A stretch of DNA of 50,843 nucleotides from the IMG/VR virus record IMGVR_UViG_3300045988_175861; one strand, given 5' to 3'. The notes below the pieces were generated by a model. That model worked only from the letters and a program-made list of their open reading frames with translations, had not been told where the DNA came from and made no database searches. The stretch comes from a virus. A program made the position numbers and the translations under genes. Positions 17,090-50,843 of the stretch are shown here, piece by piece (position 1 is the first letter of the stretch; each line of letters starts with the position of its first letter).

Positions 17090-17179
17090 ACAATAATAAA
17101 CAATGATAAACAATTCTTTGTTTACAACTGAACATATTGAAAATGAACGAGTTAGCTATAAATAAACAATATAAACAAT
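17086..17179. repeat. Composite ATAAACAAT iteron element, copy 1
   Basis: Three boxes at an exact 10-bp period (17086, 17096, 17106), an inverted box (TTGTTTAC), then GCTATAAATAAACAATATAAACAATAA (boxes at 17162 and 17171). The same layout recurs at 38641-38733. Confidence 0.8.
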
Positions 17180-17428
17180 AAATTTGCTATTTGACTTAAA
17201 CTATAAAATGTGATTTTACAGTAGTTAAATAGATTAACATATTAAAAATTGACTTTTTATCTAGAGGCTTATAGGGAAATATAGTTTCTTTGTTCTTTTG
17301 TTTCTCTTCCATACTTAGAAATGTTGATGGTTTTATTGTTTATCATTGAAAATCAAGCAGTTAACTGAATTTCACAAAATAATATTTATTTTTATACAAA
17401 ATTATTTTTTCTTGTCAAAGGAAAGATT

Positions 17429-17436
17429 TATATTTG
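17429..17436 (+). promoter_or_regulatory. Bacteroidota-type -7 promoter box TATATTTG
   Basis: TTATATTTGCATTG lies 42 nt upstream of the 17478 start. The same extended sequence occurs at 42451. Confidence 0.6.
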
Positions 17437-17477
17437 CATTGTCAATCTCACAGAAATAGTAAATCATTATTAATTAT

Positions 17478-17876
17478 ATGGAACAGTTTGATATTAATAA
17501 AATCATTGAGCACTACAAACTAGACACTGATGAAGTATCTAAAGTGCTATTTCCGCATGTCAAATACCAAAAGTTGGCATTTGATAGAGTGATAAAAGGC
17601 GAATCATCATTAGATGTAGACCAGTTAATTGAGCTTGCTAAGTTCATAGGCGTGCCAACATATGAACTATTCAATATAGATGCATGGAAATGCCAAAAAG
17701 AGGACAATTGCTTAGTTTTCTTAAAAGGAGAATTTAAATGCAAACTAAATTATAATGGAGCGTTCTTAACAGTCTATAAGAATGGAAAGCAAGTAGCTCA
17801 ATTCATAGGAGCTAATGGCCTATATACAGTAGAAGAATTTATAAATTATATTGATACATTAACCAAAAATTATTAA
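17478..17876 (+). CDS. Helix-turn-helix (XRE/Cro-like) DNA-binding protein
   Basis: 132 aa. The N-terminal part ...LDTDEVSKVLFPHVKYQKLAFDRVIKGESSLDVDQLIELAKFIGVPTYELF resembles an XRE-type HTH. It is the first gene after a 388-nt regulatory gap. Confidence 0.6.
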   Translation: MEQFDINKIIEHYKLDTDEVSKVLFPHVKYQKLAFDRVIKGESSLDVDQLIELAKFIGVPTYELFNIDAWKCQKEDNCLVFLKGEFKCKLNYNGAFLTVYKNGKQVAQFIGANGLYTVEEFINYIDTLTKNY

Positions 17877-27309: not shown

Positions 27310-29061
27310 ATGAAATACTTATTAATCACACTTGGTCATGGCTCATCAGCAATTTATATTGACGATGAAAAGAAAACAGTTATAGGGTACGAACAAGAAC
27401 GTCTATCTGGCATTAAGGCAGATAGCCAATTTCCTAAAGATGCGATAAATGAGATTATAAATAATGTTGGCTATATGGAAATGAAAGGCTGCAACATTTT
27501 TATTTCGCATTGGTTTAATCATCAAGATTCGCCAGCAGATATACTATATAACAAGTATATACAGGAGATTGATGCTATGAACCTAAGAGCATTATCTAGT
27601 AACATAATGCAAGTGAATAAATCATTTTCGCATCATGATGCACATGCGTATAGTGCATTGTCGTTCTTAAAATACAATAGGCCGTCATATAATAAGGAGA
27701 CTTATACGATTGTTGCAGATGGGTTTGGTAACAATGAAGAAGTATTATCGGTATATAAATCTGAAATAAATAATATAATGAGCCCTAAACTCGTATTAAG
27801 AGTTTCAGATTATAGAGCATCACTCGGTCTTATGTACCAATACGCTACTTCATTTTGTGGCATGAAAGAAAATCAAGATGAGTACAAGTTCCTAGGCTAC
27901 GAATCACATATAGATGAAGTGCTGTCGTTAGAAATGATTGATGCATTAGATTTTTATGTAGAAGATAATGTGAAAACACTGGAATCGTATGTACGCGGAG
28001 AAATGCTAAAAAAGTCTGCTGATAGAACAGTATGTAGAGAATGCAATCCAGATATGCTCATAGACACAAGTATGCTATTTGATGTAAGAATGCATTGGTA
28101 TGATATATTTAAAGAAGTGCTAAATATAGCAAACATAGATGTAAACGATACATTCAAAGTAAGATGTGTCATAGCTTACTTTATACAGCAATCAATAGAA
28201 ATATTCTTTGTGAGGCTTATAAATGAATTCAATATGCGAAATGTTTGCTTGGCTGGTGGATGCTTTTATAATGTTAAGCTTAACAACATAATATTAAGCA
28301 GAATAGCAGGTAACCTATGCATAATGCCATTGGCAGGCGACCAAGGAGCAGCAATTGGGATGTATACAGCATTTTCTAGAAAAATATTCAACTTTGGCAA
28401 TTTATGCTTTGGCAAACGACGTTTATACAATATTGAAAAATATGAAAGAAATAATGTAAAGGTTGTAAATTTAAAAACTCCTGGCATAATACAATCGATT
28501 GCAAGAGATATTTGTGATGGCAATATCGTAAATGTTGTGAGAGAAAACATGGAATTTGGTCCACGAGCTTTGTGTTCAACATCTAGTTTATTTCTGCCGA
28601 CTACTGAGAATGTTGCTAGAAACAATATGATGAATAAACGCAATGAGGTTATGCCATGCGCTCCTGTAATTTTATCAGGAAATGCGCATACTATGTTTTA
28701 TAGCAAAGATTTATCAAGAGTTATTGGTAGCTCAAAATATATGATTTGTACATTCGACTATATTAAGAAGTACTCTAAGCAGTATGGTGGCGTAATGCAT
28801 AAAAAGCCTTTAGAGAATGTATATACAGGAAGACCGCAAATCATTGAACCTGATTATATTGATACTGAAAATGATTTTATGTACAATTTGCTAACTGCTG
28901 TTGAAGATATATGTGATGCAAAATGCCTAGTTAATACAAGCTTCAATGCTCATGGCCGCCCAATTGTATTTGACACGATGGATATTATCCATAATTTCAA
29001 TTTTCAATGCGAGCATTCTCCATCTAACAAACAACCTATCTTATATATAATTAAAGGTTAA
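27310..29061 (+). CDS. NodU/CmcH/TobZ-family carbamoyltransferase
   Basis: 583 aa. N-domain motifs LGHGSSAIY, FSHHDAHAYSA and VADGFGNNE. C-domain motifs EFGPRALCSTS, KRNEVMPCAPV and VNTSFNAHGRPIV. All match the Carbam_trans_N and Carbam_trans_C signatures as I know them. Confidence 0.85.
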   Translation: MKYLLITLGHGSSAIYIDDEKKTVIGYEQERLSGIKADSQFPKDAINEIINNVGYMEMKGCNIFISHWFNHQDSPADILYNKYIQEIDAMNLRALSSNIMQVNKSFSHHDAHAYSALSFLKYNRPSYNKETYTIVADGFGNNEEVLSVYKSEINNIMSPKLVLRVSDYRASLGLMYQYATSFCGMKENQDEYKFLGYESHIDEVLSLEMIDALDFYVEDNVKTLESYVRGEMLKKSADRTVCRECNPDMLIDTSMLFDVRMHWYDIFKEVLNIANIDVNDTFKVRCVIAYFIQQSIEIFFVRLINEFNMRNVCLAGGCFYNVKLNNIILSRIAGNLCIMPLAGDQGAAIGMYTAFSRKIFNFGNLCFGKRRLYNIEKYERNNVKVVNLKTPGIIQSIARDICDGNIVNVVRENMEFGPRALCSTSSLFLPTTENVARNNMMNKRNEVMPCAPVILSGNAHTMFYSKDLSRVIGSSKYMICTFDYIKKYSKQYGGVMHKKPLENVYTGRPQIIEPDYIDTENDFMYNLLTAVEDICDAKCLVNTSFNAHGRPIVFDTMDIIHNFNFQCEHSPSNKQPILYIIKG

Positions 29062-29065
29062 TGCT

Positions 29066-29710
29066 ATGAAAAATACGTACTTCGTAGTTTTCTCTGGTGG
29101 TTGTTACAGTGGGAAAACAACTACCATGCAGAAATTCACAAAAGCTCTTGAGAATAAAGGAGTTAAAGTAAAAGTTTTAGATGAGATTGTAAGGAAGCAC
29201 AAGATACAATCTATTGATAAACTGAGAAAAAACCCAGTAGCTTATCTTGATTTTCAAAACAGAATAATAAATGAGAAAATAGAAGCTGAGTTATCATGCC
29301 TCAATGAAAATAGAAAACAAGTTGTAGTTTGTGATAGAGCAATTACTGATTCACTCTTCTATTTGCTATTCTATGTTGACAAAGCAAATTTGAATGAAGA
29401 GCAAATGGCACTCTACGCAAATTTGTATGAAAGTATAGACCAATATGCGAAAAGAGCATTCAGCGAGATATATGATTTGTTAATAGAATTTAAGCCAATC
29501 AATAAAAATGAAACTTATGATTCATACAGGCCAAAAAATATTAGCATAAATAAATATATTGAGTATAAGATGATAAACACTTTGAATGATGCTTACATGA
29601 ACACTTCTACAGACTTACAGGCTTTATATCTCGATTTGAATAAAGGCTCTTACGATGATTTACTTGAAGTAATAACGAATAATATTGCAAAACGATATGA
29701 CAAAGATTAA
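29066..29710 (+). CDS. P-loop nucleotide kinase-like protein (dNMP kinase or DNA 5-hydroxymethyl-pyrimidine kinase candidate)
   Basis: 214 aa. Walker A FSGGCYSGKTT, then VVVCDRAITDSLFY, which resembles the DR...D..Y lid region of dNK/AAA_28-type kinases. Confidence 0.6.
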   Translation: MKNTYFVVFSGGCYSGKTTTMQKFTKALENKGVKVKVLDEIVRKHKIQSIDKLRKNPVAYLDFQNRIINEKIEAELSCLNENRKQVVVCDRAITDSLFYLLFYVDKANLNEEQMALYANLYESIDQYAKRAFSEIYDLLIEFKPINKNETYDSYRPKNISINKYIEYKMINTLNDAYMNTSTDLQALYLDLNKGSYDDLLEVITNNIAKRYDKD

Positions 29711-30518
29711 ACATTTTAACAAGTTGAATGAATATATAACAAGCAATACTTGGAGAGTGTTCTTCAACCAGTTCTTAGACCAAATTCCGTACTCTGAATT
29801 AAGAGATAAGGAATATCTGGAAGTTATTGGAGCTACTTACAGAATACTGCCTGAAAACTATTTAATGAGTAATAACTCATCTTTAATCAATCCTAAAAAG
29901 TTATATGCATTGTTCAAATGGTATAAAAAAGGAGATAGCAAAGACACATCCATAGTACAATATTTTCCTGAATATGAGCATCGTGTTGATTTTTTCCATA
30001 GCGACTTCAATTCTAACTACGGAATATACGCATATAAGAAAAAAGGAATTGTAAGATGCGCGCATGAGCTGATTAAAAACAGAAATTCAAGACAAGCTTG
30101 CTTTATGATAAACAATAATGAAGCAATGTCTGAAGATTCTATTGATAAACTATGCACTAATGCTATAATGTTCTTCATAAGAGACAACATGCTCAACATG
30201 TGCATACAGATGCGCTCATCTAATATACTCACAATGCTTCCATACGACATATTTATGTTCTGTGTGTTCTATTATCAGGTTTTAGAAATGGTATCGTCAA
30301 AATACCATGACTTAGATACAGGTGTTATAACTATGCAAGTTGGCTCTCTTCACATGTACAAAAAAGATATGGAAGAAATAAAAAGTACAAAGCCTTTATT
30401 AAAAATTGGAATTGATGGCTCATATTTATATGGTGGTATGATACCTTATAGATACGCGCATACGAAGATTACTCCAGCGATTGAAAATATTCTCAAACAA
30501 CTAGCTGAAAATGGATGA
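29685..30518 (+). CDS. Thymidylate-synthase-fold pyrimidine C5 transferase, paralogue 1 (dCMP hydroxymethylase/methylase candidate)
   Basis: 277 aa. SNYGIYAY (YGxQW region), NSRQACFMINN (SRR...WNP region), catalytic-Cys segment KLCTNAIMFF, QMRSSNILTMLPYDI (aligns to QRSCDVFLGLPFNI) and GSLHMYKKD. Asp replaces the Asn177-equivalent residue. Confidence 0.75.
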   Translation: MQNDMTKIKHFNKLNEYITSNTWRVFFNQFLDQIPYSELRDKEYLEVIGATYRILPENYLMSNNSSLINPKKLYALFKWYKKGDSKDTSIVQYFPEYEHRVDFFHSDFNSNYGIYAYKKKGIVRCAHELIKNRNSRQACFMINNNEAMSEDSIDKLCTNAIMFFIRDNMLNMCIQMRSSNILTMLPYDIFMFCVFYYQVLEMVSSKYHDLDTGVITMQVGSLHMYKKDMEEIKSTKPLLKIGIDGSYLYGGMIPYRYAHTKITPAIENILKQLAENG

Positions 30519-30771
30519 TAATACCGATTTGCTGCTAAAATATGCCAAACAGAATAATGATTTTCTGAGGGCTATATACTCTCTTACAAAGCAAAATAAT
30601 GAATTGTTGAAATATATAAAGCAAGAGATAGATAAAGAATTTAGCTTAGAAAATCTCATAAAAGTGGAAAGCGTTATTTTTGTAGCAAATATAGTTGCTA
30701 ATATATTTTCAAACATTTTATATCATGATTTATTAGAAGACAAAAGTAAGTATAACAAAAAGCAAAAATGA
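30511..30771 (+). CDS. Hypothetical protein
   Basis: 86-aa ORF that overlaps both neighbours by a few nt. Confidence 0.55.
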   Translation: MDDNTDLLLKYAKQNNDFLRAIYSLTKQNNELLKYIKQEIDKEFSLENLIKVESVIFVANIVANIFSNILYHDLLEDKSKYNKKQK

Positions 30772-31265
30772 TTATGAAATTCTTAAAAACAAGAAATGTG
30801 AAAAGCCCAGTAAGAGGCACTGATAAGTCAGCAGGAATTGATTTTTTCATTCCAGAAGATTTTGAAATAATGAGATTATTTCCTGGTGACGATGTGCTCA
30901 TTCCGTCTGGAATTAAAGCCAATTTGCCAGAAGGTTTCATGCTGATGGCCGCAGACAAATCAGGTGTTGTTACATCAGAAAATGCTGTACTTAAAAGTGG
31001 AAGAGAGCCTAAAAAGGGCGCATTCAATTCAAATTTGATAATTGGCGCAAAGATTGTTGATGAAGACTATCAAGGAGAAATACACATACATTTAATAAAT
31101 GTTGGTAAGCATGAAGTTATGCTAAAACCTGGTATGAAGATTGCACAATTTATCTTAGTGCCAGTTGCATATGCTGCTTTAGAAGAAGTCGATAGCGAAA
31201 CTGAATTGTTCGATGCTAAGACAGCAAGAGCAGATGGTGGTTTTGGCTCTACAGATAAACGATAA
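30768..31265 (+). CDS. dUTPase-family (trimeric) nucleotide pyrophosphatase
   Basis: 165 aa with all five motifs: SAGIDFF, DKSGV, AKIVDEDYQGEI, MKIAQF and RADGGFGSTD. It has about 14 extra residues between motifs 2 and 3 relative to E. coli Dut as I recall that sequence. Confidence 0.85.
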   Translation: MIMKFLKTRNVKSPVRGTDKSAGIDFFIPEDFEIMRLFPGDDVLIPSGIKANLPEGFMLMAADKSGVVTSENAVLKSGREPKKGAFNSNLIIGAKIVDEDYQGEIHIHLINVGKHEVMLKPGMKIAQFILVPVAYAALEEVDSETELFDAKTARADGGFGSTDKR

Positions 31266-31278
31266 CACATAAGGTTTT

Positions 31279-31345
31279 ATTCTAGAGAGGCTTTTTATTA
31301 GGTCTAATATATTTCATTCTCAATTTGATTTAGCCTCTCTAGAAT
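31279..31345. promoter_or_regulatory. 14-bp perfect inverted repeat with 39-nt spacer
   Basis: ATTCTAGAGAGGCT (31279-31292) pairs with AGCCTCTCTAGAAT (31332-31345). No flanking T-tract. It lies between the dUTPase-family gene and the next ORF. Confidence 0.6.
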
Positions 31346-31375
31346 AGCCTAAGATAACTTAACTTATTTAAACAA

Positions 31376-31705
31376 ATGCATATGAAAACTATAATCGTAT
31401 GTTTAATGCTACTACTTGCTAATAGCTCATTTGCTCAAATATATATTGAAGATATTGATGAGAAAATAGAGCAATTGGTACAACAGAATAGAATACTGCT
31501 ACAAAAAGCTGATAGCCTTAATAAGCAATTAAAAATCATAATTGCAAGCAGACAAGAAGGTGATGCAATGATAAAAGCAAGACAGAATGAGATAAATTCT
31601 TTACTAGGAATAGTAAAAGTCAATATCGATATGATGTATGCTTTGCAAGATAGAAAAAGAATACTTCAACAGATAGAAAGCAATGGATGCAATAGTAATA
31701 AATAA
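31376..31705 (+). CDS. Secreted coiled-coil protein
   Basis: 109 aa. Signal-peptide-like N terminus MHMKTIIVCLMLLLANSSFAQ, then heptad-like sequence. Confidence 0.6.
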   Translation: MHMKTIIVCLMLLLANSSFAQIYIEDIDEKIEQLVQQNRILLQKADSLNKQLKIIIASRQEGDAMIKARQNEINSLLGIVKVNIDMMYALQDRKRILQQIESNGCNSNK

Positions 31706-31910
31706 TGTAATGCATGAATTATTGCTTAATAAAGATTTTATGCCTGGAAATGTAGCAATAAAAATGTGTGATATGTGTTCATTAAAAAGTTATTGTTGGA
31801 ACTTAAGCATTCCTGATATATGCGATACTTTGATAATGCAAGATGAGCATAAAAATGATTACAGGATGTTTAGAGAAATTGGCAAATTGCAAGGTTATTT
31901 CTTAGAATAA
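31683..31910 (+). CDS. Hypothetical Cys-rich protein
   Basis: 75-aa ORF with CDMCSLKSYCWNLSIPDIC. Confidence 0.5.
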   Translation: MDAIVINNVMHELLLNKDFMPGNVAIKMCDMCSLKSYCWNLSIPDICDTLIMQDEHKNDYRMFREIGKLQGYFLE

Positions 31911-31927
31911 TTAAACATAAAAAATGT

Positions 31928-32356
31928 ATGGCAAGAAAAACAGTGAATATTGACCCTCTTATAAATTCAGATTTATTCCTTAAGTTTGCAGGTCATTTTG
32001 CAGATAAGTTTAAAAAGCAAAATGGGTTTGGCAAATGGCTTGAAGAGTATAAGAGAATGGACAAACAAGGATTGTTCGAACCAGAGAAACTAAGGCAACA
32101 ATATATTCAAGTTATTAACAATAATTATAGACTTGGATTTGTACATAAACAAGCGATTGTGTATATTTGTGTACAAGCACTTGATGCCGTAAAATTTGGC
32201 ATAGAAACTAAGAATTATAGCATTTATGTAATATCAGGTGAAATAGCTATTGATGACAATGGATTGGAACTTAAAAATCTTAAGCATGATGACGCAATAA
32301 CTATTTGCAAATCTATGAATGAAGAAGCAGAAGAAGAATTATTTTATGTAAAGTAG
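31928..32356 (+). CDS. Hypothetical protein
   Basis: 142-aa ORF that starts with ATGGCAA. Confidence 0.65.
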   Translation: MARKTVNIDPLINSDLFLKFAGHFADKFKKQNGFGKWLEEYKRMDKQGLFEPEKLRQQYIQVINNNYRLGFVHKQAIVYICVQALDAVKFGIETKNYSIYVISGEIAIDDNGLELKNLKHDDAITICKSMNEEAEEELFYVK

Positions 32357-32361
32357 CAACT

Positions 32362-33060
32362 ATGATAGACAATACTATTAAAAACTTAATATTCTTAGAT
32401 GCAACTGATGCGTTTGAATATTTGTATGAATACATAATGAAATATGGAAAAAATACAAATATAGGGACTAAAGCTATATATAACGCTGGGTTTTATATAG
32501 CACAACCGCAAAGAAGACTTATAGAAACTAGATGGAGGAAATTCAGTATAACCTATGCAGAAAGAGAATGGCAATGGTATTTATCGCAAAATAGAAGTGT
32601 CAAAGACATAAAGAAATATGCCAAGATTTGGGATAAAATGCATGGAGGAGACAATATAGTCAATTCAAACTATGGTTGGCAATGGAACCGCAATGCACAG
32701 CTTGGAAAATGTATAGAACAATTAAAGGCAAACAAAAATACACGCCAAGCTTGGCTTACAATATTTGATGGTAAAGAAAAAGATGATTATGAATTTGACA
32801 CACCATGTACATTGTCTATAGGCTTTGATATACTACAAAATGAAAATGGCGATGATTTTCTCAATATGTGTGTAAACATGCGGTCTAATGATTTGATTTA
32901 TGGTTTTTGCAATGACCAATATTGTTTTTCTATGTTACAAGAATACGTTGCAAAAAAACTAGGTATCCGTGTAGGAACATATTATCATTTTGTTCATGAT
33001 TTACATATCTACGAAAAGCATTATAACTTAAAAGAAAAATATTATGAAAAAACTAGGTAA
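32362..33060 (+). CDS. Thymidylate-synthase-fold pyrimidine C5 transferase, paralogue 2
   Basis: 232 aa. NYGWQWN, NTRQAWLTIFD, catalytic-Cys segment DTPCTLSIGF, NMRSNDLIYGFCNDQY (aligns to QRSCDVFLGLPFNIAS) and DLHIYEKHY. Asp again sits at the Asn177-equivalent position. Confidence 0.8.
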   Translation: MIDNTIKNLIFLDATDAFEYLYEYIMKYGKNTNIGTKAIYNAGFYIAQPQRRLIETRWRKFSITYAEREWQWYLSQNRSVKDIKKYAKIWDKMHGGDNIVNSNYGWQWNRNAQLGKCIEQLKANKNTRQAWLTIFDGKEKDDYEFDTPCTLSIGFDILQNENGDDFLNMCVNMRSNDLIYGFCNDQYCFSMLQEYVAKKLGIRVGTYYHFVHDLHIYEKHYNLKEKYYEKTR

Positions 33061-34281: not shown

Positions 34282-34728
34282 TTATTTCTTTACTGCTTTC
34301 CAAAGATGGTAAATACTGCCTTTCTCTGTTTGAATATACTGTTTTCCATAATCATTGTAAAGAATTTTGCACACCTGTGGCTCTAATGGTGGTTTACAAG
34401 TGTTTGCATATCTTACTGTGCATTCACTGCTTATTCCATCCCAATTTATCTGCAAATACCAATTATTGAACAAATCAATATATAGATTGTATTGAAATTC
34501 ATCTTCTTCATATGGGATGAATAGAGCTTCTATGAGACCATTTCTTTCATCCAAATAGCACCAATCGTCATCTATATGAAAGCCATTCTGGAAGCGCCTA
34601 TTTATATCATAGACAAACTTCATATTTGCTTCATCAATCATAGGTTCATCATCTTTCATGTAGAAAAATGCATCATTTGGAATTATGACCCGCTCTGCAT
34701 GGTCATAATTCATAGAATAATTTGCCAT
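34282..34728 (-). CDS. Hypothetical acidic protein (leftward early module)
   Basis: 148-aa ORF that starts with ATGGCAA, with a TATATTTA box about 90 nt upstream on the minus strand. Preferred over the overlapping + strand ORFs. Confidence 0.65.
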   Translation of the reverse strand: MANYSMNYDHAERVIIPNDAFFYMKDDEPMIDEANMKFVYDINRRFQNGFHIDDDWCYLDERNGLIEALFIPYEEDEFQYNLYIDLFNNWYLQINWDGISSECTVRYANTCKPPLEPQVCKILYNDYGKQYIQTEKGSIYHLWKAVKK

Positions 34729-34817
34729 AATTTTTTACTGTCTATCTGTGTATTATTCATCTAGTAATATGCAATATTTTTTACTGCAGCCTAGACTACA
34801 GGCTACATTTTAACATG

Positions 34818-34825
34818 TAAATATA
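34818..34825 (-). promoter_or_regulatory. -7-like promoter box (TATATTTA on the minus strand)
   Basis: The reverse complement of TAAATATA lies upstream of the 34728 start. A TTTTCTGTTAAT element sits at 34852. Confidence 0.4.
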
Positions 34826-35073
34826 GAAAAAATATTTGAATAACCAAAGAATTTTCTGTTAATTATTTGTTAAATATTATAAAGCCACATTCAATATAAA
34901 AATCAGGCATTGCTAATATCTTATCTAGATATTAACCAGCATACTAGATTTAGCCTAGATTTAATTTAAATACAAGAAACGATAAAACCCATTGGAAATT
35001 ATAAAAGTTTCTAGAAATAGCCCAAAATGACCTAAATTGAGTAGAAATATTATGTTTAATATAAATGGAGGCA

Positions 35074-35113
35074 CAAAAATATAGGCAGGCTATCTTCACA
35101 GACTGCCTGCCTA
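35074..35113 (-). terminator. Hairpin terminator (minus strand) with AGTCTGTGAAGATA loop
   Basis: 9-bp stem TAGGCAGGC/GCCTGCCTA with a 14-nt loop. The minus-strand transcript continues into TATATTTTT. It lies directly downstream of the 35167..36249 gene. Confidence 0.75.
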
Positions 35114-35166
35114 CTGGTTTTCACCTAAACTTAATTATGAATTATTTAAACAGAATGGCTGGTATA

Positions 35167-36249
35167 TTATTCAGCTGAATTTTCAGCATTTTCTGCAGCT
35201 TTGAGTTCACTGTCAAGCTTTTCTGCAAGTTCTTTCTTAGCTTCTTCAAGCTCTTCAGTCAATTTTGCCTTCTTTGCATTCAGCTTCTCAATCTGAGCAT
35301 CAATTTGTGAAATTCTCTTTTCGGCCAATTCGATACTCTTTTCAGGAGTTAATTCCTCTTTGTTTTTTCTGTTATGCAGTCTTTCCATATATTTGGCATT
35401 CAGCTTTGCACCTTCTTCATCAAGCTCTTCTGCCAATCTCAAATCTTTATTGTCTGACACTTTGTGAGAATATTTAACAGGGAGACCTAATGCTTTCTCA
35501 TCTTCTGTTTGGTCAATTGCAATTCTGAACAGAATTCTCTTGCCTCTCTTATCTGCTACTAGTGATACAACTCTACCAGTTTCAGTCTCTGCATTCTCAA
35601 TCTTTTCTCCAATTGCTCCAGTCTTCTCATAAGCAATTGTTTTGCCGACATGGACTGAATTCTCCTCAATTGCCTTGTTAATATCTTCTTCAGCCCAAGG
35701 TTCTTTTGGCTGTGAATTTTCAGATGACCTCTTAGTGCCTCTTGCTTTCTTCGGCAATTCAACAACTTCATCTTCAATCTTAATGAGCTGAGAATCTACA
35801 GCTTTCACAATTCTCCGGCCATCATCAAGCTTAATGGCATACATTACTTTGTTTGACCTCTTTTCCTCAATGATTGAAACAACTATTCCTGGTTCCCAGA
35901 TTGCAGTATTGAAAGGCACAACTTGGCATCTATGGCCAATTGTAGTTTCTTTCAATTTTGCTGCAAGCTCAGAGCGCTCTTGGTCAGTCATCTTCTTTTT
36001 TGTTTCCTTTGAGCCACCTTTGCCTTCATAAGAGGGGTTTATGCCACCATTTTCCTCAGCTGCTTTGATTGCTGCCTCTTCTTCCGGAGTAAGTGGAGCT
36101 TCTTCAGCTTCAGCTACCTCTTTGGCTTTTTGCTGTCTAGCTTCAAGGATTGCTGTGATTTGGTCTTTCACTTCTTGAGTAGTTTCTTCACTGTTGAACA
36201 TTTCATTCAATTTCTTTGAACTCATCTGATTTAAATTCTTTGTTGCCAT
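35167..36249 (-). CDS. Hypothetical highly charged protein with an internal duplication and C-terminal coiled coil
   Basis: 360 aa, monocistronic with its own promoter module and terminator. GIVVSIIEEKRSNKVMYAIKLDD and GRVVSLVADKRGKRILFRIAIDQ are two copies of a small beta-rich module. Confidence 0.75.
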   Translation of the reverse strand: MATKNLNQMSSKKLNEMFNSEETTQEVKDQITAILEARQQKAKEVAEAEEAPLTPEEEAAIKAAEENGGINPSYEGKGGSKETKKKMTDQERSELAAKLKETTIGHRCQVVPFNTAIWEPGIVVSIIEEKRSNKVMYAIKLDDGRRIVKAVDSQLIKIEDEVVELPKKARGTKRSSENSQPKEPWAEEDINKAIEENSVHVGKTIAYEKTGAIGEKIENAETETGRVVSLVADKRGKRILFRIAIDQTEDEKALGLPVKYSHKVSDNKDLRLAEELDEEGAKLNAKYMERLHNRKNKEELTPEKSIELAEKRISQIDAQIEKLNAKKAKLTEELEEAKKELAEKLDSELKAAENAENSAE

Positions 36250-36256
36250 AATTTTT

Positions 36257-36356
36257 AGTTTTTTAATTGGTTATTATTAGCTTTAATTTGTTATTGCAAA
36301 TACGATTGTTATTTTTTAATCTTGAAAGTATTTTAGAACTTTTTTCTGTTAAATAA
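36257..36356 (-). promoter_or_regulatory. Leftward promoter module A
   Basis: On the + strand: AGTTTTTTAATTG (36257), the complement of the -7 box CGTATTTG (36297-36304), TAATCTTGAAAGT (36317) and TTTTCTGTTAAATAA (36342). The order and 20/45-nt spacings match module B. Confidence 0.65.
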
Positions 36357-36399
36357 TGTTTATGATACCTTCAACTGTTTTTCTTTAATTATCACATTG

Positions 36400-36407
36400 C
36401 AAATATA
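36400..36407 (-). promoter_or_regulatory. -7 promoter box TATATTTG (minus strand)
   Basis: Reverse complement of CAAATATA, within the 36250-36496 intergenic gap. Confidence 0.45.
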
Positions 36408-36496
36408 CATGTTTCCTGATTGTATTTTGTTAATTGCAAGTTAAAATTTTCTGGTTGTCTGTTAAATTTTGTTTTAGCATTTGCTGTTATTTCAAA

Positions 36497-36748
36497 TTAC
36501 AACTCAGCCACTTTTTCTAAATTATAACATGCGTTTTCTAAGACTCTATGCATCTTGGACCTCATTTCAGCTTCACTGATAACATTTCTTTTGAATATTA
36601 TTATGAACTGGCAAGGACTAACTTCTATTATAACTGATGAGCCTGAAAGCTCAGTCTGTAAGTTATCTACAATTATGCTATAATCACTGTTTCTAAGTGG
36701 TGCAATTTCAAATCTATAGACTACACAATCTCCATTCTCTTGTTTCAT
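36497..36748 (-). CDS. Hypothetical protein
   Basis: 83-aa ORF, the last gene of the four- or five-gene leftward operon. Confidence 0.6.
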   Translation of the reverse strand: MKQENGDCVVYRFEIAPLRNSDYSIIVDNLQTELSGSSVIIEVSPCQFIIIFKRNVISEAEMRSKMHRVLENACYNLEKVAEL

Positions 36749-36771
36749 AATTCTCAGTGTTTTTTAAATGA

Positions 36772-37077
36772 CTACAATAAATTAACTTCTCCTTTTGTTA
36801 TATCAAAAATCTGTATACCACTCAAAATATGAAACTTACCATACTTTGCAAGTCCTTTATAATTAACTATTTTCTGTGCATAATATCTATTCTGAGCTTT
36901 GCTGTAATTTATTTGATAAATTGAAGAATACCCACAAACATATAATTTTTCTCTTTCAATAATTTCACAAGAAATTCTGTTAAGTTCTATATTTCCAGCT
37001 TTGCATTCTATTGCTGTGTCTTCATACATAACATGAAAAGGGACATCTTCTGGTCTTTTGTAAATAGCTGTTTTCAT
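36772..37077 (-). CDS. Hypothetical protein
   Basis: 101-aa ORF in the leftward operon. Confidence 0.6.
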   Translation of the reverse strand: MKTAIYKRPEDVPFHVMYEDTAIECKAGNIELNRISCEIIEREKLYVCGYSSIYQINYSKAQNRYYAQKIVNYKGLAKYGKFHILSGIQIFDITKGEVNLL

Positions 37078-37089
37078 AATTATTAGTTT

Positions 37090-37185
37090 TTAAATTCCAA
37101 ACAAATGATAACTTATGATACTTATAAGGAGCATAGCCAATCCTATGGCTATGCATATATCTCCTTCTTTTTTATTGCTCTCCAT
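37090..37185 (-). CDS. Possible small membrane peptide (31 aa)
   Basis: Hand translation of the minus strand gives MESNKKEGDICIAIGLAMLLISIISYHLFGI. It fills the gap between two leftward genes. Confidence 0.4.
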   Translation of the reverse strand: MESNKKEGDICIAIGLAMLLISIISYHLFGI

Positions 37186-37199
37186 GACTACCTGAATTA

Positions 37200-37472
37200 T
37201 TACAGCTTATATTCTATTACTTTGTGGGCAGTTCTTGACTCAAATGCATTATGAGCAAACCCAAGTGTAGATGCCAACCTTACTGCTTTTTTCAATTGTA
37301 TCATTATTTCAAATGCTGCATCTTGAGCATTGTGTTCAGCGATTGAAAAATCTCTGTTGTTGCTACATTCATTCTGTGTCTTTTCAGCATTCTCAATATC
37401 AGCTAAGCATTTATTGATTTGCTTCATTGTTGCCTTAATCTCTTTTCTGTAATCTTCTGTCAAAGTCTTCAT
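37200..37472 (-). CDS. Hypothetical protein
   Basis: 90-aa helical ORF, the first gene downstream of promoter module B. Confidence 0.65.
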   Translation of the reverse strand: MKTLTEDYRKEIKATMKQINKCLADIENAEKTQNECSNNRDFSIAEHNAQDAAFEIMIQLKKAVRLASTLGFAHNAFESRTAHKVIEYKL

Positions 37473-37479
37473 AACTGTA

Positions 37480-37577
37480 AGTTTTTTAATTGTTAGTATT
37501 CTTTTGTTTTGGTATTACAAATATACAGGATAATTTCTAATCTTGAAAGTTTTTATAGTTAATTTTCTGTTAAATAA
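37480..37577 (-). promoter_or_regulatory. Leftward promoter module B
   Basis: On the + strand: AGTTTTTTAATTG (37480), the complement of TATATTTG (37518-37525), TAATCTTGAAAGT (37538) and TTTTCTGTTAAATAA (37563). Confidence 0.7.
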
Positions 37578-37579
37578 CC

Positions 37580-37594
37580 ATGCCATTGTGGCAT
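37580..37594. repeat. Palindrome ATGCCA-TTG-TGGCAT
   Basis: Perfect 6-bp arms. It is the first member of the TGGCA/TGCCA motif family that fills 37580-38320. Confidence 0.7.
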
Positions 37595-37783
37595 TAAGCA
37601 TTAATTCTTATTTCCGCATAATCATGCCAGAATGTCATATTGAAACTATCTCAAATCAGTTATCATTTAACGGCTTTATAGTGCTGTTATGAATGCAATA
37701 TTGGTGTGATATCAAATCAAAATTGTAATGGCATCATGCACACAGGTGATAATGACAAATTGGCATGTTGCATACTTGTAGGG

Positions 37784-37802
37784 TGACAGGATGACAGGAT
37801 GA
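37784..37802. repeat. 8-bp tandem repeat TGACAGGA x2.4
   Basis: TGACAGGATGACAGGATGA read directly from the sequence. Confidence 0.8.
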
Positions 37803-38006
37803 AATTTGTTGATGATTGTTAACAATTTTGCCTTGGTGCCAGATTTAAAGTGAATTTGAATGCCTGAATGCCATCATCATTTTTCGGACTAGGAAATTAT
37901 GGTAAAATAACTGCTTATTGGCTAATTGCCATCATAGCAATTTTGAAGTAACATCAAACTTACAAGCTAATAACTATTATTATATTATTGCAGCAATTTC
38001 AAATAT

Positions 38007-38080
38007 GGCATAATGGCATCATGGCAATTAGCTCAATGGCATAATGGCATCATGGCAATTAGCTCAATGGAATAATGGTA
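38007..38080. repeat. 31-bp tandem repeat x2.4
   Basis: The unit GGCATAATGGCATCATGGCAATTAGCTCAAT is perfect at 38007-38037 and 38038-38068, followed by a degenerate partial third copy. Confidence 0.9.
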
Positions 38081-38124
38081 ACAAGAATAGTAATAAATTA
38101 TTACAAGTAAGGCATTTTGACATT

Positions 38125-38160
38125 AGGCCCCTTTGTGCCTGAGAGCCGGGGCCTTTATTA
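38125..38160 (+). terminator. GC-rich hairpin, terminator-like
   Basis: 7-bp stem AGGCCCC/GGGGCCT with a 16-nt loop, followed by TTATTA. The T-tract is weak and it is isolated in an ORF-free region. Confidence 0.4.
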
Positions 38161-38200
38161 TAAATAATATGATGATGAGCTCTTTGGCAATCAGACTTTT

Positions 38201-38264
38201 TTAAGTTTTTAGGCTTTTTATTAAGTTTTTTAGGTTTTTAAGTTTTTAGGCTTTTTATTAAGTT
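38201..38264. repeat. 27-bp direct repeat (37-bp period), T-rich
   Basis: TTAAGTTTTTAGGCTTTTTATTAAGTT occurs at 38201-38227 and 38238-38264, with TTTTAGGTTT between the copies. Confidence 0.9.
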
Positions 38265-38640
38265 ATTTGATTTAATATTTTCATAAGCAGGCCCATAGAC
38301 TAAATGGCAAAATGGCATTTTTGCTTCCAAAAAAATTTTAACTATATTTCTAAGTGTGAAAAATGTTTAATCAATTTTGAGCGCTAGATTTTAATAGCTT
38401 TAAATTGACATTTATAAGTCATCGTTTTTAGGCTAATTTCTTTTCCAGAATAAAATAAAGCATATCCAGACTGACTTTTAAGGCTAATTATAATATTTAA
38501 AGTCAACGCGTGCGTACAAAGGCATCGCTTTACAAACCAATATACCGTTTATCGGTCTGGTAAAAAGCCACAATCTAAAATTATCCCATATTTGGCATTT
38601 ATTTACTATCATAAAAAGTCAAGAAACAAGAATTTTTCTT

Positions 38641-38733
38641 GTAAACAATGATAAACAATCGTAAACAATGTATCGTTTATCGATAAGTGATTGATTTTCA
38701 ATAGAATAAGCTATAATAAACAATATAAACAAT
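38641..38733. repeat. Composite ATAAACAAT iteron element, copy 2
   Basis: Boxes at 38641, 38651 and 38661 (exact 10-bp period), an inverted variant box, then GCTATAATAAACAATATAAACAATAA (boxes at 38716 and 38725). The architecture matches 17086-17179. Confidence 0.8.
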
Positions 38734-38804
38734 AATTATTCTAATAAAAGGGGTTTAATTATATAAAAAGTATATATCGTATAAATAGGGGGTATATAAC
38801 GAAA

Positions 38805-38850
38805 ACGCGCAGGCACGCGTGCGCGTGTACGCACACACATGGGCACGCAC
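38805..38850. repeat. GC-rich alternating pyrimidine-purine tract (Z-DNA-prone)
   Basis: 38814-38841 (CACGCGTGCGCGTGTACGCACACACATG) is a perfect 28-nt Py-Pu alternation. Shorter alternating runs flank it, and it contains the palindrome GCACGCGTGC. Confidence 0.85.
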
Positions 38851-38865
38851 CTTTTTAGCGATTTT

Positions 38866-39300
38866 ATTGTTTACATTGTTTATCGACGTAAAATTGGACT
38901 GTAAACGACTGATTTTTAATCACTTACAAATAAACAATATTGATAAACAATGATTTTTTTCTGACAATTTAATATGTTTATTTTGTTTATACTGGAATTT
39001 TTCTTGTTCCACTTGTCAAAATTTATCAGTGTAAATTTTACAAAGTGACACTTTGTCATTGGACAAAAGTGGTAAAATGGAAAATATACAATTTCGTTTA
39101 TTCCATTTTACTATTAGCCAGCCTAGAAACTATGTGTCGTTCTACCACTTTGCTGTCAAAACTTTTCTTGAACACTCACAACTGGCCCGGACTTCCTAGT
39201 TTGCACTTTTTATTGTTTATCTTGTTTATTCTATTATAACTGACTGAAAACTAGCAAGTTAGCGATAAACAATGCTTGTTTACTAGAAATATTTATTGTT
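38866..39300. repeat. Dispersed ATAAACAAT boxes, both orientations (about 11 copies)
   Basis: Examples: ATTGTTTACATTGTTTAT (38866 onward), AAATAAACAATATTGATAAACAATG (38929 onward), TATTGTTTATCTTGTTTAT (39208 onward), GATAAACAATGCTTGTTTAC (39263 onward). Confidence 0.7.
39040..39056. promoter_or_regulatory. Perfect 17-bp palindrome ACAAAGTG-A-CACTTTGT
   Basis: 8-bp arms read directly. It is nested within a second imperfect inverted pair (CCACTTGTC / GACAAAAGTGG) and followed by a 10-bp-stem hairpin at 39072-39111. Confidence 0.6.
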
Positions 39301-39388
39301 CCTACAAAATTTTCTCTTTTTCTTACCACAGCCAATCATCATTATACTTTTTTAACTTAAAAGACTTTTTTAATTCGCAGCCTTTATT

Positions 39389-39396
39389 CATATTTG
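39389..39396 (+). promoter_or_regulatory. -7-like promoter box CATATTTG upstream of terS
   Basis: TTCATATTTGCATAAC lies 54 nt upstream of the 39450 start. It is one mismatch from TAnnTTTG but has the same TATTTGCA core as the other boxes. Confidence 0.5.
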
Positions 39397-39449
39397 CATA
39401 ACAAGCTAATAATGAGAATTTATATAAACATAACTTTTAGAACTGTATT

Positions 39450-40160
39450 ATGCAAGAAGACAGAACAGAAAAGATACTTGAATTGCTACCAGAAGTTGAT
39501 TCAAGGCACGCTAGAGTGGTCGGCAAGCTGAGGGAGCGAGCTATAGCTGAAAAGGTTGAAGATATTGACCAGAAGTATACAGCTGCCGAACTAGCAAGAG
39601 CGAAGCTTAGAGAAAAGCGAGCAATAGAAAATCTAGAGAGCAAGAAGGCAACAGAGAGAAAAATTGATGAATCTAAGCTAGCTGAGCGTAAGAAAAATCT
39701 TGACATTTTGGAATCAATTGAGACCGACCAAGCAGCGTCTGCAAAACTCTGTGTTCCTGAACACGCTCTTCCTCTGCTTGGAACTACTAAGCCAGAAGTT
39801 GCCAAGCTGCTGACTTCACTTAATATCAATCTCAATTTGGCACTTACTAAGCAGGATACAATGAACCTGCTTTCATCGCTTTTGACTTGTAATGAATCTC
39901 AGCTGAATGCTGTATATAACAATAAAAAAGTGCCAGTTGCCATTAAGACAGTCATAAAGAGGCTATTAGAAGACGCGAAACTTGGCAATATGGATACAGT
40001 TGAGAAGCTGTGGGATAGAGTGTTTGGAAAGTCTGGTATGGTTATAGATTCAACTGCATATACAAACCAGTCACAGATAGCACCTGGACTGCTACCAAAT
40101 ACGGTTGTATCAAGAGAGGCATACATGATAATAAGAGACACAATAATTGGAGACAGATGA
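39450..40160 (+). CDS. Small terminase subunit candidate
   Basis: 236 aa directly upstream of terL, with a charged coiled-coil N-terminal half. The C-terminal ...IKRLLEDAKLGNMDTVEKLWDRVFGKSG resembles the A..G.......L.DR..GK segment of small terminases. Confidence 0.55.
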   Translation: MQEDRTEKILELLPEVDSRHARVVGKLRERAIAEKVEDIDQKYTAAELARAKLREKRAIENLESKKATERKIDESKLAERKKNLDILESIETDQAASAKLCVPEHALPLLGTTKPEVAKLLTSLNINLNLALTKQDTMNLLSSLLTCNESQLNAVYNNKKVPVAIKTVIKRLLEDAKLGNMDTVEKLWDRVFGKSGMVIDSTAYTNQSQIAPGLLPNTVVSREAYMIIRDTIIGDR

Positions 40161-40186: not shown

Positions 40187-40217
40187 CGTACGTGCACATA
40201 CACACGTACACATACAT
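40187..40217. repeat. Alternating pyrimidine-purine tract (31 nt, perfect)
   Basis: CGTACGTGCACATACACACGTACACATACAT, preceded by the GC-rich GCGCCAAGCGCAC. It lies in the 91-nt terS-terL gap. Confidence 0.85.
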
Positions 40218-40251: not shown

Positions 40252-41832
40252 ATGAACATAAGGAATTTTAGAAAAGAATCATTGGCTCAGATACAGGCAA
40301 AAGCATATAAAGATGTTAATGGCGAGGTTGACCCAAAGGAGTTGTTACGACTTGAGCTGCTAGCGTCTCTTGAGAAGTACACACGAGCTATGTTTAAAGC
40401 ACAGTATCATCGTTCATTTGTTGTGAATCAGCACCATAAGATGATATTTAAAGCTTTGCAGGATGTAGTAGATGGAAAGATAACAAAGTTAAAGATTAAC
40501 ATGCCACCTAGATATTCGAAAACAGAAATTGCTGTTAAATCATTTATCAGTTGGTGCTTCGCCCTCAATCCTGTATGCAGGTTCCTACATTTATCATATT
40601 CTGACTTGCTTGTGAATGATAACTCAGCCACAGTGAGAAATATTATGATGGAGCCACTGTATAAAGAGTTGTTTCCAGATGCTGCACTAGAGAAGGAGAA
40701 AGGGTCGTCTACTAGATGGAGGACAGTGAAAGGAGGAGAGCTGTATGCTGTATCAACACAAGGACAGGTTACAGGTTTCGGAGCTGGGCATGTTGATGAA
40801 GAGGAGAACTTGACAGAAGAAGACTACCAAGGTTTGACATTTGATAGTACGCTGAACGAAGTGCTGCATCTTATAGATGCAAGGACTAACATATTCAATG
40901 GAGCAATACTTATTGACGACCCAGTCAAGCCAGAAGATGCAGAATCTGATGTGGTCAGAGAAAGGATAAATCAACGGTTTGAGAATACTATACGTAACCG
41001 TACAAACTCTCGTAATACACCAATCATAATCATAATGCAAAGGCTACATGAGCATGATTTGTGTGGATACCTTGATGAGATTGAGCCAGGTGAATGGACG
41101 ACACTCTCGCTTCCAGCTATTCAGGTTGATGAAGAAGGTAACGAAAATGCTCTGTGGCCAATGAAGCACACACTTGAGGAGTTGCATAAGATGAGAGCAA
41201 TTAACCCGCTTGTGTTTGACACACAGTATATGCAAGACCCTAAACCAAAAGAAGGCCTTATGTATCCTGAGTTTAAAACATATGTACCTGAACAACTACC
41301 AACTGGTAGAGATGCCTATAAACGATGGAATTATACAGATACTGCAGACACTGGTGCAGACCATTTATGTAGTATTTGCTTTATAGATACACCTGAATAT
41401 GCTTATGTTACTGATGTATATTTTACTGATGCGCCTATGGAAGTCACAGAGCCAAAGACCGCCGAGATGCTAGCGCTTAATCTTACTGTAAAGGCTAAGA
41501 TTGAGGCTAACAATGGTGGGCGTGGGTTTGCAAGGTCAGTAAAGAAGCATCTTAGAGTTGATATGAGAAGCTTCAGATGCTCCATAGAGCCATTTACACA
41601 GACTAACAATAAGTATGTACGTATATACACGCAGTCAGCCAATGTTATGAATGATATTTTGTTCCCAATTGGTTGGGAGAAAAAGTGGCCAAAGTTCTAT
41701 AACGCACTTACAAGTTATAGAAAGGATAATAAGAAAAGAAGCCAGCACGATGATGCTCCAGATGCTCTGACAGGTGTATATGAAATGCATGCTTCAAGAG
41801 ATAGCAAAAGAGGCATTAAGCAGAGAAACTAA
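40252..41832 (+). CDS. terL: Large terminase subunit
   Basis: 526 aa. Walker A-like NMPPRYSKTE, Walker B AILIDDPVKPED, coupling motif IIIMQRLHEHDL and a C-terminal nuclease with HDDAPDALTG. Confidence 0.9.
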   Translation: MNIRNFRKESLAQIQAKAYKDVNGEVDPKELLRLELLASLEKYTRAMFKAQYHRSFVVNQHHKMIFKALQDVVDGKITKLKINMPPRYSKTEIAVKSFISWCFALNPVCRFLHLSYSDLLVNDNSATVRNIMMEPLYKELFPDAALEKEKGSSTRWRTVKGGELYAVSTQGQVTGFGAGHVDEEENLTEEDYQGLTFDSTLNEVLHLIDARTNIFNGAILIDDPVKPEDAESDVVRERINQRFENTIRNRTNSRNTPIIIIMQRLHEHDLCGYLDEIEPGEWTTLSLPAIQVDEEGNENALWPMKHTLEELHKMRAINPLVFDTQYMQDPKPKEGLMYPEFKTYVPEQLPTGRDAYKRWNYTDTADTGADHLCSICFIDTPEYAYVTDVYFTDAPMEVTEPKTAEMLALNLTVKAKIEANNGGRGFARSVKKHLRVDMRSFRCSIEPFTQTNNKYVRIYTQSANVMNDILFPIGWEKKWPKFYNALTSYRKDNKKRSQHDDAPDALTGVYEMHASRDSKRGIKQRN

Positions 41833-50447: not shown

Positions 50448-50843
50448 AAAAGATTATCTGTAATAAAAATATTATACAAGTTTATGACGGTATAGATGAG
50501 CTTCCTATAATAAATTTTCAGAAGTTTAATAAGTTTTTGCTTATCGATTCTGGCATAGGTTCTGATATAGATGATATTGACAGGCATGCTGTATATATTG
50601 CTAAGTTGATAAACACAGACAAGGCAAAAGCATTGCAGGAATTACAGAATATGCGGCAAAATATGTATATGATTAGTAGCGAAATATCTCCTAAATATAT
50701 GGCTTTTGCATCATTGATATATAGCATAAACGGTAAAAGAGTAACTGATTATTCAGATGATAATCTAAAAAATATTATAAAAAGTATAAATACAGTTAAG
50801 CATTGTACTATACTATCATTTATTGCAAAATTTAAAAAAAAAG
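50444..50843 (+). CDS. 5' part of the wrap-around CDS that ends at 487
   Basis: The ATG at 50444 overlaps the previous stop (ATGA). The frame stays open to the end of the window and continues in frame 2 at the window start. It is missing from the ORF track because it has no stop in the window. Confidence 0.75.
   Translation, partial: MKKIICNKNIIQVYDGIDELPIINFQKFNKFLLIDSGIGSDIDDIDRHAVYIAKLINTDKAKALQELQNMRQNMYMISSEISPKYMAFASLIYSINGKRVTDYSDDNLKNIIKSINTVKHCTILSFIAKFKKK
50725..50843. repeat. Terminal overlap, copy 2 (identical to 1-119)
   Basis: Exact repeat of nt 1-119. It fits circular closure or an assembler overlap better than a physical terminal repeat. Confidence 0.9.

Follow-up and report, generated by a model that had tools for sequence, protein, structure and literature searches.

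A gene-free control region of a Bacteroides-type gut phage carries conserved iteron modules, probably a replication origin of its VapE-family primase-helicase

The window analysed here, the 50,843-nucleotide (nt) IMG/VR virus record IMGVR_UViG_3300045988_175861, contains between positions 37473 and 39449 a stretch of about 2 kb without a credible gene. This stretch, and in particular the short repeated DNA sites (iterons) within it, is the subject of this study. Bases 1-119 of the window are identical to bases 50725-50843. The identical 119-base ends indicate a circularly closed assembly and hence a complete genome with 50,724 unique bp. Leftward-read genes are confined to 34282-37472, directly left of the stretch. 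To its right, the plus-strand packaging, head, tail and lysis genes run from 39450 round the circle to 17089 and include the genes for TerL (40252-41832) and an endolysin (15823-16359). A replication block starts at 17478 with genes for a DUF2800 nuclease, an Enc34/gp2.5-like single-strand-binding protein, a family A polymerase, a VapE-type primase-helicase and an SNF2 helicase, and is followed by nucleotide-metabolism genes that end at 34149. Where genes are called early or late below, and where a switch between them is considered, this is based on gene content. The nearest cultured relatives of TerL (70% identity) are found in the Bacteroides fragilis phages BF486P2, BF503P1 and their kin; in the cultured B. 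fragilis phages of the family nearly all genes are annotated as hypothetical. More than 150 related contigs are present in IMG/VR, and the phage family is common in human gut metagenomes. Literature searches for an origin, a packaging site or a transcription map of this family found none.

The stretch contains no ATG-initiated open reading frame (ORF) of at least 70 amino acids (aa) within 37473-39436, which is the largest such gap in the window. Its sole ORF of at least 60 aa (39045-39239) has a GTG start and would encode 64 aa. The longest stop-free frame comprises 88 codons, rising to 124 when TGA is recoded and to 96 when TAG is recoded. In alignments with the close relative L001, substitutions in the flanking gene for a 236-aa protein were found mainly at codon position 3 (e.g. 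16 of 22, 13 of 16 and 9 of 10 per 100 nt), and 38300-39450 showed neither codon-phase bias nor indels. A hidden or recoded gene was therefore rejected, there being no long frame under stop recoding and no codon phase in the substitutions. The 64-aa ORF was likewise rejected as a gene, as it shows no codon phase and no family match. Its ratio of replacements to silent changes was approximately 14:4 by a hand count in the alignment with L001 and a further relative, L002, and it stays open in both because the alignment has no indels across it. These results agree with a first-pass annotation of the window, which had described about 2 kb without a credible ORF, under any stop-codon reading as it now appears, and a single weak ORF with a GTG start. 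Its statement that the rest of the genome is packed gene to gene did not stand, as gaps of 388 nt (17090-17477) and 438 nt (34729-35166) occur elsewhere.

A gene-free gap of 0.9-2 kb was found at the same place in 13 of 13 relatives identified via the 236-aa protein, and BF486P2 has 1660 unannotated nt at the matching position. The left half (37600-38300) is indel-rich and diverges fast from L001. By comparison, 38600-38900 differs from L001 by 1-4%, which is below the synonymous-site divergence of the adjacent gene, and distant relatives align only across the zone of TAAACAAT sites, of which the window contains 25 against 6.8 expected, 11 of them within 38642-39273. The first-pass annotation had proposed an alignment with related phages to find out which repeats are conserved; the right half with its iteron module is conserved, and the repeat field on the left is fast-evolving. 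The coordinates of the features are given in Table 1.

Table 1. Features of the control region, of the second iteron site and of the genes discussed in the text, in window coordinates.
Feature	Position	Strand	Remarks
Site A	17087-17365	plus	module 17090-17179, spacer, degenerate inverted iterons 17298 and 17336
VapE-family primase-helicase	22432-24846	plus	Pfam VapE-like domain, E = 6.7e-84
C-terminal winged helix, proposed iteron reader	24400-24846 (aa 657-804)	plus	AlphaFold2 model
Carbamoyltransferase	27310-29061		hypermodification-type cluster
P-loop kinase-like protein	29066-29710		hypermodification-type cluster
Two thymidylate-synthase-family paralogs	29685-30518, 32362-33060		BF486P2 homologues annotated as dCMP hydroxymethylases
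dUTPase	30768-31265		hypermodification-type cluster
Leftward promoter module, putative, for the 90-aa gene 37200-37472	37473-37575	minus	exact TAnnTTTG match
Variable repeat field	37576-38122		ATG[GA]CA motifs in both orientations and tandem repeats; indel-rich, 22-50% diverged from L001
Box H	38123-38160	plus	TTAGGCCCC, about 22 nt GC-rich, GGGGCC, then TTTATTATA
T-rich tandem repeat	38198-38268		37-bp period, 1.9 copies; 34-nt copies, 97% identical
Module B1	38645-38733	plus	profile match E = 4.8e-12
Spacer between inverted modules	38734-38865		AT-rich part 38736-38802, 78% A+T
Module B1', inverted partial copy facing B1	38866-38939	minus	profile match E = 8.4e-5
Stretch between modules	38940-39211		further iterons 38944-38951 (plus), 38975-38990 (minus)
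Module B2, second inverted copy	39212-39283	minus	profile match E = 1.6e-9; conserved in 21 relatives
-7-like box CATATTTG of the packaging/structural operon, putative	39391-39398	plus	7 of 8 positions of TAnnTTTG; first gene starts 39450

An iterated profile search defined an 89-nt module that consists of three direct copies of AAACAA, one inverted copy, a central TTGAnnnTCAAT palindrome and two further direct copies. Four copies of the module occur in the genome, namely B1, B1' and B2 in the gene-free stretch (together site B) and one at site A, which heads the replication operon within the 388-nt gap. Exact AAACAA hexamers number 15 in 38624-39281 and eight in 17088-17341, with six per module, and their density peaks at exactly two loci, 38.6 kb and 17.05 kb, with 8 per 300 nt at a mean of 0.62 (standard deviation 1.06). 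The copy at site A tells more about the element than any other single fact; it had escaped the first-pass annotation, which had placed the iteron array in the gene-free stretch only. In module B1, the three direct AAACAA copies are spaced by 10 bp and are followed by an imperfect inverted copy, CGTTTATCG, the central ATTGATTTTCAAT palindrome and two direct copies with a 9-bp spacing. B1 is near-identical in the window, L001 and L002, and no other block of the region is conserved as widely among relatives.

At both sites the iterons face each other across a spacer, at site A in reduced form. At site B, iterons at 38718 and 38727 on the plus strand are opposed by iterons at 38867 and 38876 on the minus strand, and an inverted repeat links 38716-38735 with 38864-38883 (95% complementary). 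At site A, plus-strand iterons at 17164 and 17173 are opposed by minus-strand iterons at 17298 and 17336, and the spacer (17182-17285) has 78% A+T. The same layout recurs in relatives, with a plus-strand module, a spacer of mostly 105-130 nt and inverted iterons; their spacers have 11-38% G+C, usually 11-30%. Where the flanks are complete, the module heads the replication operon in 62 of 62 relatives and precedes the packaging genes in 29 of 33. The lineages of the contigs L144, L152, L153 and L155 have no AAACAA modules at site B. The stretch 38940-39211, between B1' and B2, additionally contains the non-coding 64-aa ORF, TGACA/TGTCA palindromes (39034-39060) and an inverted repeat whose arms are 39066-39086 and 39131-39151. 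Its identity to L001 is 83-89%, at 11-17 substitutions per 100 nt and with neither indels nor codon phase.

The GC-rich part of the site B spacer (38803-38852) contains 29 nt of perfect purine-pyrimidine alternation (38813-38841). The first-pass annotation had listed such alternating tracts as interrupting the array; the tract is present and is lineage-specific, being confined to the window, L001 and L002 apart from weaker forms in L012 and L143. Because it is absent from the spacers of most relatives, we rejected it as part of a conserved design. Other long alternations lie at 40187-40217 (31 nt, in the 91-nt gap between the gene for the 236-aa protein and TerL) and at 41613-41633 (21 nt, inside TerL at its 3' end); these two and 38813-38841 rank as the three longest perfect alternations of the genome. 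The segment 40100-40200 is indel-rich compared with L001.

A search of bacterial genomes for the iteron module gave apparent chance matches only, besides phage-like contigs in metagenome-assembled genomes (MAGs). The module is present in multiple copies in contigs L177, L190 and L192 from Acutalibacteraceae MAGs and L185 from a Clostridium MAG, all among GTDB species representatives. These are probably phage contigs misbinned into bacterial MAGs.

The VapE-family primase-helicase of the replication operon matched SaPI1 Rep1 (PDB 7pds_A, "similar to D. nodosus vapE") over aa 374-733 with a phmmer E-value of 1.7e-72. An AlphaFold2 model of its last 148 aa (predicted local distance difference test score, pLDDT, 87) comprises a helix-turn-helix (HTH) plus a beta-hairpin. 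When this model was searched with Foldseek, chains A-F of 7pds were matched with E = 1.7e-5 to 1.2e-4 and a template-modelling (TM) score of 0.67, at best over 135-139 aligned columns. As modelled, the C-terminal domain shares the winged-helix fold of Rep1. In Rep proteins the C-terminal winged helix recognises iterons of 5-6 nt, and 6-12 iterons lie around an AT-rich centre, at least two on each side and in opposite directions, where the helicase loads itself (PMC9371898). Both sites of the window fit this layout with respect to the number and length of the iterons, the AT-rich centre and the opposed flanking iterons.

The phages with different iterons point to the same protein. Sites A and B of BF486P2 have no AAACAA and share another module, about 90 nt in length; the BF486P2 record has its sites at positions 30318-30470 and 6780-6895. 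The BF486P2 helicase and that of the window are 69% identical overall, and the least conserved 30-aa segment of the whole protein, aa 756-785, falls within the winged helix (identity 0.30). In contrast, phages with AAACAA iterons keep the recognition helix (RY-TRDINDIMK) down to approximately 55% helicase identity; in those with 56% identity in the helicase, the HTH is 73-83% identical and thus among the best-conserved segments. This covariation of the winged helix with the iteron type, seen in sequence comparisons, points to the helicase as the iteron reader. A third iteron type may be present in L152, a contig without AAACAA modules, which has at the corresponding place (positions 2551-2672) a 43-nt inverted repeat (98% complementary, 36-nt spacer) with a recurring AGTAAAAACTAC. 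Two further distant VapE contigs examined for switched iterons were uninformative.

Other candidate readers were tested in the same way. The first gene of the replication operon encodes gp132 (17478-17876, 132 aa), the N-terminal 65 residues of which resemble a Cro/CI-type HTH, with sub-threshold matches to HTH_3 and HTH_26. It was rejected as the reader, as its recognition helix is the same across different iterons and differs among phages with the same iterons. The protein gp143 also failed, its conserved C-terminal motif being present everywhere. As for the terminase, the same module is found at both sites in L203 and L204, two distant phages of 35 kb. At the second site it was matched with nhmmer E = 1e-7 to 1e-8 and immediately precedes genes for a phrog_1482 TerS and a phrog_2 TerL without BLASTP similarity to proteins of the window. 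Since the module is kept beside non-homologous TerS and TerL, the terminase is not the common reader.

Taken together, we consider it probable that the conserved core of the region is a replication origin of the iteron type, served by a self-loading VapE-family primase-helicase. A role as replication origin was among the functions listed by the first-pass annotation, and it is supported by the anatomy of the iterons and by the comparative link to the primase-helicase. In the mechanism we propose, hexamers of the primase-helicase would bind the iterons on each side via the winged helix and melt the AT-rich part of the spacer, and two helicases would load themselves in opposite directions without a separate initiator or loader. 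The fused N-terminal primase domain would then prime, and the family A DNA polymerase and the gp2.5-like single-strand-binding protein would extend. The genome would accordingly have two such origins, as in phage SPP1, or one origin plus a helper site, as in satellite phage P4. The two sites bracket the replication and early-gene block, and each lies just upstream of a major rightward operon promoter.

Several observations weigh against an origin read by the helicase. The GC-rich tract within the spacer of this phage is odd for a melting region. The covariation represents one lineage switch only, that of the BF486P2 group, and the winged-helix region is well conserved out to actinobacterial VapE proteins, so that a general role is conceivable. 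Neither site adjoins the helicase gene, site A being 5 kb upstream and site B 14 kb downstream of it, whereas the origin of the Staphylococcus aureus pathogenicity islands (SaPIs) is located directly downstream of rep. Finally, an operon promoter follows each site at a distance of roughly 60-110 nt, an arrangement equally compatible with an operator array.

As a whole, this is a composite control region in the intergenic space that separates a leftward promoter from that of the packaging/structural operon. To call it a control hub, as the first-pass annotation did, is fair in this sense. In Bacteroides, promoters of the housekeeping sigma factor have a -7 element TAnnTTTG and a TTTG-like element about 19-21 nt upstream. 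The leftward promoter module contains an exact -7 box of this type, TATATTTG (37518-37525, minus strand), preceded at 19 nt by a TTTC box; a TTATTTAACAGAAAA block upstream is also conserved. Copies of the module at 34729-34830 and 36250-36360 (minus strand) precede the leftward genes at 34728 and 36249, and the three modules serve a leftward gene block of 3.2 kb. Counterparts are present in L001 and BF486P2, and many Bacteroides phages of the B40-8/B124-14 type, otherwise unrelated, have the module at 75-80% identity. On the right, the -7-like box CATATTTG is conserved in L001 and L002 and replaced by an exact TATATTTG at the matching place in BF486P2 and L109. The activity of both promoters is inferred from the consensus; TAnnTTTG is not enriched genome-wide (77 found, 74 expected), and no exact rightward -7 box occurs anywhere in 37473-39449. 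A further -7 box (17429-17436) follows site A ahead of the replication operon. The first-pass annotation had named a terS promoter at the right end. The box was confirmed as -7-like and conserved, and the gene behind it, for the 236-aa protein, is terS by position only. Inserted genes were seen near the homologue of this gene before TerL in BF486P2 (L175), with an HNH endonuclease at 31621-32064, and in L109, where a 204-aa gene (2536-3150) precedes the homologue; the window is without such inserts.

The left half of the region is occupied by the variable repeat field. ATGGCA/ATGACA motifs occur at 15 sites in 37581-38317 and reach 14 per 800 nt compared with a genome mean of 1.5 (standard deviation 1.9). 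The field also contains an 8-bp tandem repeat (37780-37802, 2.9 copies) and a 31-bp tandem repeat (38005-38078, 2.4 copies). All repeat families listed by the first-pass annotation are present; the T-rich repeat, given there as 27 bp, has the longer period shown in Table 1. BF486P2 likewise has a TGGCA field at this position, and relatives have lineage-specific tandem arrays of unrelated sequence there. The field correlated with the variable N-terminal half of the 236-aa protein (rho 0.54) no more strongly than with its conserved half (rho 0.45), and no covariation of the field with the Cro-like gp132 was found. In many relatives of nearly full length, the contig stops 2.0-2.8 kb before TerL. 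We rejected these contig ends as physical termini, since they lie in the lineage-specific tandem repeats, and one in a Nextera adapter, which identifies them as assembly breaks; the frequent breaks of short-read assemblies at this locus are explained by the tandem repeats immediately to the left of box H. A Nextera adapter, fused to phage DNA, opens the public contig L128 (positions 1-58; IMG/VR 3300045988_153868) as an untrimmed assembly artefact.

Box H lies directly right of the repeat field and consists of box 1 (TTAGGCCCC) and box 2 (CCCC, then TATA-rich) at near-fixed spacing in 31 distinct relatives including BF486P2, where it is found at record positions of about 29895-29945. In the window, a hairpin at 38125-38154 (-14.3 kcal/mol, z = -2.7) resembles a rightward terminator. 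Its pairing is significant in 4 of 31 phages only (the window, L003, L014, which is BF486P2, and L105), so that the sequence is conserved rather than the pairing, and a conserved hairpin was rejected. Box H is therefore probably a protein site rather than a general terminator. Together with the adjoining repeat field it occurs throughout the phages that share this TerL, and it was not seen beside the module in L203, the sole distant phage with an unrelated terminase whose sequence was read.

Regulation is the main rival to an origin. The iteron modules could be operator or enhancer arrays that switch the promoters of the replication and packaging operons, via the primase-helicase or another shared phage protein, and would then not be origins. 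The genome has only two major rightward operon starts, each preceded by one of the sites; the inner module ends at the above-mentioned distance from the -7 box, and a small Cro/CI-like protein, albeit with sub-threshold HTH matches, is encoded first after site A. On the other hand, at least 12 sites over 300-650 nt with a fixed AT-rich spacer would be unusual for an operator, the recognition helix of gp132 does not track the iterons, and the segment that does covary is the winged helix of the helicase. We therefore regard a purely regulatory function as unlikely, and the operator and origin roles are not mutually exclusive.

Two further functions considered by the first-pass annotation, packaging by way of the iterons and non-coding RNA (ncRNA), were not supported. 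A packaging site (pac or cos), at which the repeats would bind the small terminase and cleavage would occur nearby, for example in the GC-rich tract or box H, would suit a region that immediately precedes the opening gene of the packaging operon. The relatives of TerL include proteins of T1-like phages, Aaphi23 and streptococcal and lactococcal phages, which package by the headful (pac) route, and the distribution of box H and the repeat field, which follow this TerL and are not seen beside the module in L203, is also in line with it. For the iterons, however, such a role is disfavoured by the module upstream of non-homologous TerS and TerL and by the further copy heading the replication operon. 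The accumulation of contig ends at this locus reflects assembly breaks instead of physical ends; moreover, the 236-aa protein, a small terminase by position only, has no Pfam or PDB match and a model pLDDT of 57, and its variable N-terminal half does not specifically track the repeat field. A packaging site thus appears decidedly improbable as the function of the region, and for box H, judged from its sequence and distribution, a pac role is possible. The region might instead encode at least one ncRNA, for example a rightward RNA that crosses the repeat field and terminates at the hairpin 38125-38154. The TTTATTAT that follows the hairpin in the window phage, BF486P2 and L003 would fit this, as would the folding of 39023-39122 (plus strand, z = -3.6; minus strand, z = -3.0). 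However, unusual folding was limited to two 100-nt stretches, as two of the three windows with z of -3 or below represent one stretch on opposite strands. Rfam 15 gave no match at the gathering score in the whole window or at E up to 1 in 37300-39600, ARAGORN found no tRNA or tmRNA, an exact rightward -7 box is missing from 37473-39449, and the hairpin structure is not conserved in most relatives. As the conserved blocks are short repeats in both orientations, they point to DNA sites rather than RNA, and we consider an ncRNA highly improbable.

The origin and the promoters might also be connected. The iteron palindromes could couple helicase loading and replication initiation to the early-to-late switch, with the repeat field and box H as a separate, fast-evolving specificity determinant for packaging or for exclusion in co-infections. 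We hold this combined scheme to be quite doubtful. The SV40 T antigen at its origin offers an analogy for the coupling of replication initiation to a transcription switch. To our knowledge, an origin-plus-switch with a hypervariable specificity determinant has not been described for tailed phages of Bacteroidota.

The closest known counterpart is the Rep/PriRep origin of the SaPIs. The helicases are homologous and share the same C-terminal fold, and in both systems iterons with a 6-nt core, about six per module, lie in opposite orientation on both sides of an AT-rich centre; primase and helicase are also fused in PriRep5 of SaPI5 (PMC9371898). In contrast to these satellite islands, the window represents a 50-kb tailed Bacteroides-type phage that has two sites per genome, neither adjacent to the helicase gene, with a fixed 3+1+2 iteron pattern round a central palindrome and a longer spacer of about 105-130 nt. 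The satellite phage P4 has two clusters of 8-bp iterons, ori and crr, which are 4.5 kb apart and are bound by the C-terminal domain of the alpha primase-helicase. Two separated clusters of short iterons and a fused primase-helicase are common to both phages, whereas the sites are 21.5 kb apart here; the P4 domain was not among the Foldseek matches shown for the C-terminal model. The virulent headful siphovirus SPP1 of Bacillus has, in oriL and oriR, shared initiator-binding repeats beside AT-rich DNA. Its two distant sites with the same repeats resemble those found here, but SPP1 relies on an unrelated protein system made up of a separate initiator (G38P), a loader and a DnaB-type helicase. 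Packaging sites such as lambda cosB and P1 pac lie beside the small terminase gene, with repeated protein-binding elements that occur in both orientations and flank an IHF-type site. The central ATCAAT-nnn-TTA of the module resembles the Escherichia coli IHF consensus; unlike in these systems, the repeats occur at a second locus and are kept together with an unrelated terminase.

Outside the control region, a gene cluster at 27310-33060 suggests that the phage DNA is hypermodified. Its members are listed in Table 1.

The modules mark junctions at which the replication block has been swapped between phages with unrelated structural genes. For this phage family, the conserved core provides a first testable candidate origin, for which the 89-nt module is defined, the proposed reader domain is named and BF486P2 offers a natural swap of specificity. 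If the sites are indeed origins, they could be used for engineering Bacteroides phages and shuttle replicons.

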